Positions 12,198 through 13,085 of a DNA stretch of 55,467 nt are shown here, one piece after another. The position numbers and the translations under genes were made by a program. Location of the stretch: positions 1 through 55,467 of the IMG/VR virus record IMGVR_UViG_3300033145_000719. One strand, 5' to 3'. The first letter of the stretch is position 1. Each line of letters begins with the position of its first letter. This DNA is from a virus. Lineage: Duplodnaviria > Caudoviricetes. Under the pieces are notes generated by a model that saw nothing but the letters and a program-made list of their open reading frames with translations, searched no databases and was not told where the DNA came from.

Positions 12198-12896
12198 GTG
12201 GCTGTCCCACGTGAAAAATTTCAAGCAACTCCGGAACCTACCTTGAGGTGGTTGACGGACGTTTACATGCAGGTACAGAAACTCAGAGTTGCAGTTGGCA
12301 ACCGCCTCGAAGCAGCATTACGCCAGCAAGATACTACCCAACCTGTAACATACATCAAAACACTGCATAACAGACTTTACACATTAGAAAAAAGCCTATC
12401 GAGTGAAATGACCAATGCAGTTGTCAGCCATCCAACATGGCCTTGGCTGTCAAAGGTTAAAGGCGTAGGTCCGACATTGGCTACAAAGCTACTGGGTCTA
12501 ATAAGTGACATATCAAAAGCACCTACTGTAAGTTCACTGTGGCGCTACGCCGGATACAGTGTTATAGATGGTAAAGCTGAAAGACCTGTTAAAGGAGAAA
12601 AACTTCACTACAACAAACGTCTTAAAACAACATTATACCTTATTGGCGATAGCTTTATCAAGCACAGAAGCCCATTCCGCAGAATCTATGATAATGCAAA
12701 GAGATACTACAAGGCCAACCGCCCCGACTGGACTGCAGGTCACATTCACAACGCTGCACGTAGAAAAATGATAAAAACGTTTCTTGCGTGTCTATGGATT
12801 GTCTGGAGAGAGGAAGTAGGCTTATCTACAAGACCGCTCTATGTAGAAGAAAAACTAGGACACACATCAATCTACAGACCCGAAGACTTCATCTAA
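12198..12896 (+). CDS. TasA-like Nop-domain RNA-guided protein (IS110 C-terminal-like, no nuclease domain)
   Basis: Coiled coil (QKLRVAVGNRL), WLSKVKGVGPTLA HhH-like segment, VSSLWRYAG, YNKRLK, HIHNAARRKMIK; no DEDD RuvC domain; followed directly by a 36-nt array. Confidence 0.85.
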   Translation: MAVPREKFQATPEPTLRWLTDVYMQVQKLRVAVGNRLEAALRQQDTTQPVTYIKTLHNRLYTLEKSLSSEMTNAVVSHPTWPWLSKVKGVGPTLATKLLGLISDISKAPTVSSLWRYAGYSVIDGKAERPVKGEKLHYNKRLKTTLYLIGDSFIKHRSPFRRIYDNAKRYYKANRPDWTAGHIHNAARRKMIKTFLACLWIVWREEVGLSTRPLYVEEKLGHTSIYRPEDFI

Positions 12897-13085
12897 GCCA
12901 TAAGACCTAGTACGCACAATAGTGATGTGCGAGCCAACTGTGCCGAGATATCCTAAAGCACTGAGCGAACCGTTGTGCAAGAGACATCCAATAAACATGA
13001 GTGAGCCATATGCAAAAAGACAACTGTTTTGTATAAAGTGAACAACACGTACACAAAGCGATACACTTGCAAATATACAAGCCAT
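12895..13085 (+). repeat. TIGR-like guide array 2 (about 4 units, degenerate tail)
   Basis: Units at 12895, 12931, 12967, 13003 and 13040 with the same edge (GAGC GAGCC) and loop (GAGAYATCC) repeats as array 1. Confidence 0.82.

Follow-up and report, generated by a model that had tools for sequence, protein, structure and literature searches.

A predicted dual-repeat TIGR-TasA system with two arrays on stop codons of a temperate phage

The TIGR family, its TasA subtype, its occurrence in tailed phages, the flexible positions of its arrays and a repressor activity have all been described in print (PMC12045711; bioRxiv 10.64898/2026.09.09.750476). The tas loci catalogued so far number 20,096. 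In PMC12045711 TasA is called the commonest Tas effector. In dual-repeat TIGR-TasA systems, such as that of Flavonifractor plautii FpTasA (Faure et al. 2025, PMC12045711), a solo protein made of coiled-coil and Nop domains is accompanied by arrays in which edge and loop repeats alternate, with two short spacers per unit and a period of 36 nucleotides (nt). TasA proteins are reported to bind 36-nt RNAs, and RNA-guided DNA binding, with reporter repression and electrophoretic mobility shift assays, has been reported for other TasA proteins and for dead TasR (bioRxiv 10.64898/2026.09.09.750476). According to both key papers the natural targets and roles of TIGR-TasA are unknown. Here we describe a locus of the same layout, likewise a solo coiled-coil and Nop protein with alternating edge and loop repeats, in the IMG/VR record IMGVR_UViG_3300033145_000719 (Duplodnaviria; Caudoviricetes). 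The record is complete, with 55,467 bases; it was analysed as a whole and is called the window hereafter. We hold it highly probable that the gene tasA and its two arrays form a dual-repeat TIGR-TasA system of a temperate phage which works as proposed below. As far as can be judged from sequence, every defining feature of dual-repeat TIGR-TasA that can be checked in this way was found at the locus.

Tas protein and guide arrays

The tasA gene was read as an open reading frame (ORF) of 232 amino acids (aa) at 12198-12896 on the plus strand, with a GTG start at 12198, a TAA stop at 12894-12896 and a strong AAGGAGG ribosome-binding site a few bases 5' of the start. In a phmmer search against PDB sequences the best match was TasR (9mty_A, E 1.3e-33), query residues 12-228 aligning with 110-318 of the 331-aa chain, and TasH was matched at E 6e-24, with residues 16-230 on 71-304 of a 354-aa chain. 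An AlphaFold2 model, for which an alignment of 40 homologues served as input, reached a mean predicted local distance difference test (pLDDT) score of 93.2 and a predicted template modelling (pTM) score of 0.87. When the model was compared with the PDB by Foldseek, the top 10 matches were all TasR or TasH chains (template modelling (TM) scores 0.71-0.84), and in the structural alignments the protein was 35% identical to TasR and about 30% identical to TasH. After them, at ranks 12-23, came the IS621/IS110 recombinases (E about 1e-3) and then archaeal Nop5. A comparison with the Nop, IS110 and Tas families had been proposed in an earlier, sequence-only reading of this DNA, and it placed TasR and TasH best, with IS621/IS110 and Nop5 further down. 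Residues 1-13 of the model are unstructured; the fold opens with a helical hairpin (14-75), followed by the Nop domain, and the hairpin aligns with the TasR region which forms the coiled-coil dimerisation domain in the solved Tas structures. We found no RuvC or HNH nuclease part in the protein, the alignments beginning at TasR residue 110 and TasH residue 71, and a nuclease domain would have no room, because only 75 nt separate the stop of the SSB-like gene from the start at 12198. Both phmmer and the predicted fold thus agree with the sequence-only reading, which had described a coiled-coil and Nop protein without a nuclease. Since the N-terminal nuclease parts of TasR and TasH are missing, sequence and modelled fold place the protein among the nuclease-free Tas proteins, which Faure et al. 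(PMC12045711) call TasA.

The same protein also matched Pfam Transposase_20 (E 3.2e-5; 24.7 bits against a cut-off of 21.3) and PHROG 4285, which is labelled 'transposase' (E 3.8e-55). The IS110 family is recognised by a DEDD domain together with a catalytic serine, and neither is present here: there is no N-terminal DEDD RuvC-like domain and no 'SG' dipeptide anywhere in the 232 aa, so that the catalytic-serine 'SG' segment is missing as had been claimed, and the Transposase_20 region is the only one that matches.

In the phmmer alignment Y215 and H222 of the window protein stand against Y289 and H296 of SpTasH, which are the catalytic residues for metal-independent maturation of pre-tigRNA, and R204, R212, E218 and K219 stand against R278, R286, E292 and K293, which were also found important in SpTasH (PMC13421893). 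Both Y215 and H222 were at least 90% conserved in the alignment of 40 homologues, and we regard them as a candidate tigRNA-processing dyad. Xu et al. report that dual-repeat systems retain the Tyr/His dyad and that stem-loop systems have lost it; its apparent retention here agrees with the type of array at the locus.

Array 2 lies 3' of the tasA stop. As observed by motif search and by printing the sequence in register, it consists of three clean 36-nt units at 12931, 12967 and 13003 (12931-13038, plus strand), each laid out as a 5-nt half edge, a 9-nt spacer A, a 9-nt loop, a 9-nt spacer B and a 4-nt half edge; counted with a degenerate terminal edge repeat the array occupies 12931..13047. 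The clean array begins 35 nt 3' of the stop codon. The stretch between (12895..12930, plus strand), a leader or degenerate first unit, opens with a 5'-truncated edge, AAGCC, lying over the tasA stop (TAAGCC), and this half edge is all that it holds, the loop position there not matching the repeat. The sequence-only reading had placed a 36-nt array directly from the TAA and extended it to 13085. The three units which it quoted are exact, while the first 36 nt from the stop are degenerate, and the claimed extent did not stand: 13039-13085 carries no repeat, and nothing past about 13047 is repeat. Tandem Repeats Finder returned 0 rows at score 30 on 12700-13300, which is no evidence against array 2 because a short array with variable spacers defeats the program. 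Autocorrelation at lag 36 did not lift array 2 above background either. Taken alone array 2 is weak, and its reality rests on the motif evidence.

Array 1 (9188..9449, plus strand; motif search and autocorrelation) is the longer of the two. Its seven units at 9188, 9224, 9260, 9296, 9333, 9369 and 9405 span 9188-9440 and are followed by a degenerate edge repeat; spacer B of unit 4 has 10 nt and all other spacers have 9. It opens with AAGCC over the TAA stop of an SNF2-type helicase gene (7534-9189, plus strand), so that both arrays begin with TAAGCC on a stop codon, that of the SNF2 helicase gene in one case and that of tasA in the other. The edge repeat of array 1, RAGCGAGCC, and its loop repeat, RAGACAYCC, are the same repeats as in array 2; over all 7 + 3 units the edge reads RAGYGARCC and the loop RAGNYAYCY. 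Both kinds of repeat start with RAG and end with CC, that is, with a box D-like start and a box C-like end. Together the arrays hold ten canonical guides (7 + 3), all on one strand, in two groups 3 kb apart.

We compared the repeats with shuffled sequence. The half-unit GAG-N4-CC-N9-GAG-N4-CC, allowing up to 2 mismatches, gave 38 matches in the window as against 24.75 +/- 5.06 (largest 36) in 100 shuffles; 17 of the 38 lay inside the two arrays, and of the 11 that had no more than 1 mismatch, 10 did so. With up to 1 mismatch allowed, an edge consensus taken from related loci had 11 matches in the window. Eight of them lay in the two arrays, spaced at 36 nt from one to the next, or at 73 nt where unit 4 lies between. 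The lag-36 autocorrelation peak of array 1 was 58/108, the maximum in 30 shuffles being 50. The array layout is of the dual-repeat TIGR type with period 36, and the alternating edge and loop repeats with two 9-nt spacers beside a Nop-domain protein, which the sequence-only reading had seen, were borne out as a 9/9/9/9 pattern. Rfam gave no matching family, and the minus-strand ORFs across the arrays had no Pfam match. The spacers of the window are no more alike than shuffled ones. An origin of units by duplication was considered and rejected, as the closest spacer pairs share 10 of 18 bases, a value reached by 34% of shuffles.

Relatives, genome context and predicted targets

Homologues of the protein are numerous. 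A large protein collection held 218 at E <= 1e-3 among 410 candidates, most of them 225-250 aa long and the nearest 60% identical. By tblastn, GenBank phages gave 91 matches, all below 60% identity and annotated as hypothetical protein or transposase, including Salicola phage CGphi29, the source of SpTasH, and 83 mycobacteriophages; blastn of the tasA locus against GenBank phages gave no match. Tas genes thus still carry 'transposase' or 'hypothetical' labels in phage annotations. IMG/VR held 15 related loci at 35-60% identity, and among species-representative genomes there was a single match, in a metagenome-assembled genome (MAG) labelled uncultured Gammaproteobacteria.

Arrays were seen on the tas strand in 14 of the 15 IMG/VR loci, by motif or by register reading (L015 was left out of the register reading), and they usually start on or just 3' of the tas stop; in L003, L005, L006, L007 and L013 the first truncated edge repeat lies over the tas stop or the last tas codons. 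Among lags of 30 to 45, repetition was strongest at 36 in 13 of the 15 viral loci, two of these peaks being coding tandem repeats. The edge repeats of the relatives, xxGCGAGCC, are homologous to those of the window, and their loops, xAGxAACCC, resemble the window's, while the spacer columns show no consensus. Invariant spacers across related phages had been named beforehand as an observation that would speak against the TIGR-Tas reading; the spacers were found to differ among the 14 related loci while the repeats were kept. Nothing closer than 60% identity was present in the collections searched, so that turnover of spacers among close kin is not visible there. From locus to locus, the opening three bases of edge and loop change in step (GAG/GAG; AAG/AAG or gAG; GTG/GTG), and such covariation has been reported for TIGR arrays and explained by a symmetric protein dimer (Faure et al., PMC12045711). 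In the relatives each repeat is nearly always followed by an A, and therefore the box C-like motif is probably CCA, with 8 nt as the part of the spacer that is read.

The phage is temperate. An integrase gene lies at 4927-6144 and a CI-like repressor gene at 6406-7218 on the minus strand. A consensus scan, which is a pattern match only, gave a promoter-like site TTGACG-17-TATAAT (11/12) at 7257..7285 on the plus strand, preceding a cro-like gene. On the same strand there follow the SNF2 helicase gene, array 1, a small ORF, an exonuclease gene, a Sak4-like annealase gene, the SSB gene, tasA, array 2 and the primase gene, and beyond the primase the genes for dUTPase, NrdD and DNA polymerase. Scanning of 7100-9800, from the promoter-like site through array 1, gave no plus-strand terminator-like site, and in 11600-13400 the sole such site was 13113-13125, 3' of array 2 and overlapping the primase start. 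Because a promoter-like site stands before the cro-like gene and no plus-strand terminator-like site was found before the array ends, we infer that tasA and both arrays are transcribed within a rightward early operon from the 7257-7285 site.

The neighbours of tas in the relatives are of a similar kind. Of 20 scanned neighbours, ten are classed by PHROG under 'DNA, RNA and nucleotide metabolism', namely RecT, replication initiators, helicases, a primase-helicase, a dCTP deaminase and an exonuclease, and one further neighbour is a Mom-like DNA modification protein. SNF2-type helicase genes adjoin tas in 3 of the 15 loci (L004:1747-4296, L011:3802-5052, L012:787-2037). The presence of an SNF2 helicase beside tas or its array could be a coincidence of replication modules or could be a functional tie; the repeated finding, among relatives, of tasA and its array next to SNF2-type helicases and other replication genes might also speak for a tie to replication rather than to transcription.

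Some further features of the region may be noted. Between the integrase and the CI-like repressor genes, at about 6240-6290 on the minus strand, lies the 3' part of a tRNA-Thr(CGU), comprising the anticodon arm, the T arm and the CCA end; ARAGORN found no whole tRNA in the window. The best matches of this stretch in other genomes lie in tRNA-Thr genes, and it is probably, by its sequence, the phage attachment site (attP). The 65-nt stretch matched 149 of 401 genomes of the class of the MAG at up to 89% identity over at least 45 nt, and no host was identified in this way. An NrdD-like anaerobic ribonucleotide reductase gene at 16249-18381 (PHROG 487, E 2.3e-93) is a hint that the host may be anaerobic or facultative. 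Between the SSB-like gene and tasA there is a 13-bp GC-rich hairpin at 12129-12157 with a T-run on the minus strand only, and no gene ends on the minus strand there. An identical hairpin-forming stretch of 27 nt occurs at 9589-9615, 3' of array 1, and at 19442-19468, before an ORF at 19497, both copies standing shortly 5' of a ribosome-binding site. The idea that 9464-9620 might be a 'tRNA mimic' gained no support, as the fold of 9436-9660 was not above shuffles (z -0.31) and Rfam gave nothing.

Each guide is predicted to have an 18-nt target in which spacer A comes first and spacer B, as its reverse complement, second. TasR cuts are reported to leave 8-nt 3' overhangs (PMC12045711), and this order was taken because the opposite one could only give 5' overhangs; by our own geometric derivation the target geometry claimed in the sequence-only reading is consistent with the published overhangs. 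In the window itself we found 0 predicted sites at up to 3 mismatches of 18. At up to 4 mismatches there were 9, where two decoy geometries gave 7 apiece and shuffled targets 6.6 +/- 2.8; the counts at 4-5 mismatches equal those of decoys and shuffled targets. Self-targeting was rejected on these grounds, there being no sites at up to 3 mismatches and looser counts lying at background. For seven of the ten guides, exact 18-nt sites were sought in IMG/VR, where 3, 1, 1, 0, 0, 1 and 1 isolated hits were obtained, such collection scans coming without a chance expectation. The GC content of the hit contigs ranged over 0.36-0.66, the three hits of one guide lay in unrelated contexts, and in the fetched hit stretches L017-L021 (L030/L031 left out) no site of a second guide occurred at up to 3 mismatches. 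Only one hit contig shares any protein with the phage, by a 99-aa match. We read these isolated hits as chance, and it has been warned in print that short spacers give many false-positive targets.

Proposed working and rival explanations

We propose that tasA and both arrays would be made on the early lytic transcript, that of replication and recombination, from the promoter on the cro side. A TasA dimer would then bind the box D-like (RAG) and box C-like (CC) ends of the edge and loop repeats and cut the precursor within the edge repeats through Tyr215 and His222, giving guides of about 36 nt. Each complex of TasA and guide may bind a DNA site made up of spacer A and the reverse complement of spacer B, and the bound protein, unable to cut, would block transcription or replication at that site. 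As no sites occur in the phage itself, the likeliest targets would be host genes or competing mobile elements, engaged as the lytic programme starts.

Several observations weigh against this proposal. The repeats of the window are somewhat degenerate, the loops ending in CCT or ACT in three of ten units, and the base after the repeat is A in only 7/10 units at the edge and 4/10 at the loop. Array 2 is a short one, with decayed repeats at either end. No target was found, either in the phage genome or as exact sites of seven of the ten guides in IMG/VR. That the arrays are transcribed with the early operon is predicted from pattern scans, and the repression in print was demonstrated for MbTasA, which may not be of the dual-repeat type.

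The absence of a target in the phage genome, or of a convincing one in IMG/VR for the seven guides scanned there, would also suit a system which is real and acts mainly on the phage's own RNA, DNA targeting being secondary. The polycistronic early transcript would then be cleaved by TasA at edge repeats, behind the helicase gene and again behind tasA, and this would tune the expression of the replication genes or of tasA. That both arrays start on a TAA stop as TAAGCC, and that relatives start their arrays on or over the tas stop, fits with this, and Xu et al. suggest that with intragenic arrays the maturation of tigRNA may be connected with the translation of Tas. A cleavage site needs one edge repeat, however, and not ten full units; moreover, the spacers differ completely between relatives and between units, as guides would and mere cleavage sites would not, and published TasA proteins bind DNA targets. 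We therefore consider a main action on the phage's own RNA very unlikely. The degenerate positions of the repeats, the three units of array 2 and its eroded ends could also be taken to mean that protein and arrays descend from a TIGR-TasA system whose function has been lost. Such decay sits poorly with an intact ORF and a confident model, with the family residue at all 17 invariant and 32 nearly invariant columns of the 40 sequences (columns listed on that basis) and with seven consecutive units of array 1 in exact 36/37-nt register, and truncated terminal repeats are found in published TIGR arrays as well, which also begin and end with them (PMC12045711); a relic thus appears more improbable still.

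Least of all do we credit a truncated IS110-family transposase remnant with chance or unrelated repeats, an explanation to which we give hardly any weight. It could draw on the Transposase_20 match above the cut-off and on the 'transposase' label in PHROGs, but the Tas structures were matched far better (E 1e-33, TM about 0.8) than IS621 (E 1.4e-3, TM 0.62), the DEDD domain and the SG serine motif are both lacking, and an edge repeat specific to the family is found again and again in register, both in the window and in its relatives. A broader form of the dual-repeat TIGR-TasA reading would have one system both silence host or rival DNA and set the expression of the replication genes, with guides made only at lytic onset and the early mRNA cut twice in the process; we rate this as unlikely, and offer it as a speculation.

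Comparison with known systems

The locus belongs to an already published family and leaves the knowledge of TIGR-Tas unchanged; it adds two stop-codon-fused arrays 3 kb apart in a repressor-controlled early operon. It is a compact, full-length case in a temperate phage with a readable CI/cro layout, and this makes it workable for asking when guides are made and what they bind, for which the early operon, the probable attP, the ten guides and the retained dyad are the useful features of layout. With the FpTasA locus it is likened by description and not by sequence. It differs from that locus in that each of its two arrays sits on a stop codon of the early operon, and in that no rho-independent terminator was seen after either array.

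TaTasR (PDB 9MTY) and SpTasH (PDB 9W03, 9W04, 21KL and others) share homologous coiled-coil and Nop domains with the window protein, and the C-terminal Tyr/His processing dyad of SpTasH is also present in it. TaTasR has in addition a RuvC part and SpTasH an HNH part, whereas the window protein is without either and, because this part is missing, should bind but not cut. Nuclease-free RNA-guided DNA binding by which transcription is repressed has been described for MbTasA, PlTasA, BlTasA and CsTasR (bioRxiv 10.64898/2026.09.09.750476, 10.64898/2026.08.11.744272), and by analogy with them this is the likely mode of action of the window TasA. Programmable binding without cutting, the function proposed in the sequence-only reading, is thus a demonstrated activity of other TasA proteins. 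PlTasA, BlTasA and CsTasR use stem-loop guides, and the stem-loop clades are described as being without the Y/H loop, whereas the window locus is of the dual-repeat type with the dyad kept.

Further away, the IS110/IS621 bridge-RNA recombinases and Nop5 of box C/D snoRNPs have in common with the window protein an RNA-binding fold of the Nop type and the logic of tandem guides. The window protein lacks the DEDD recombinase domain, the catalytic serine segment and a fibrillarin partner, and its guides are held in arrays whereas IS110/IS621 elements have a single bridge RNA. Finally, in nuclease-free CRISPR interference of types IV and V-M (PMC12045711) a mobile element likewise blocks DNA by means of a guide RNA; TIGR-TasA is set apart from these systems by its unrelated fold, by its use of no protospacer-adjacent motif and by a split guide which pairs with both strands of the DNA.

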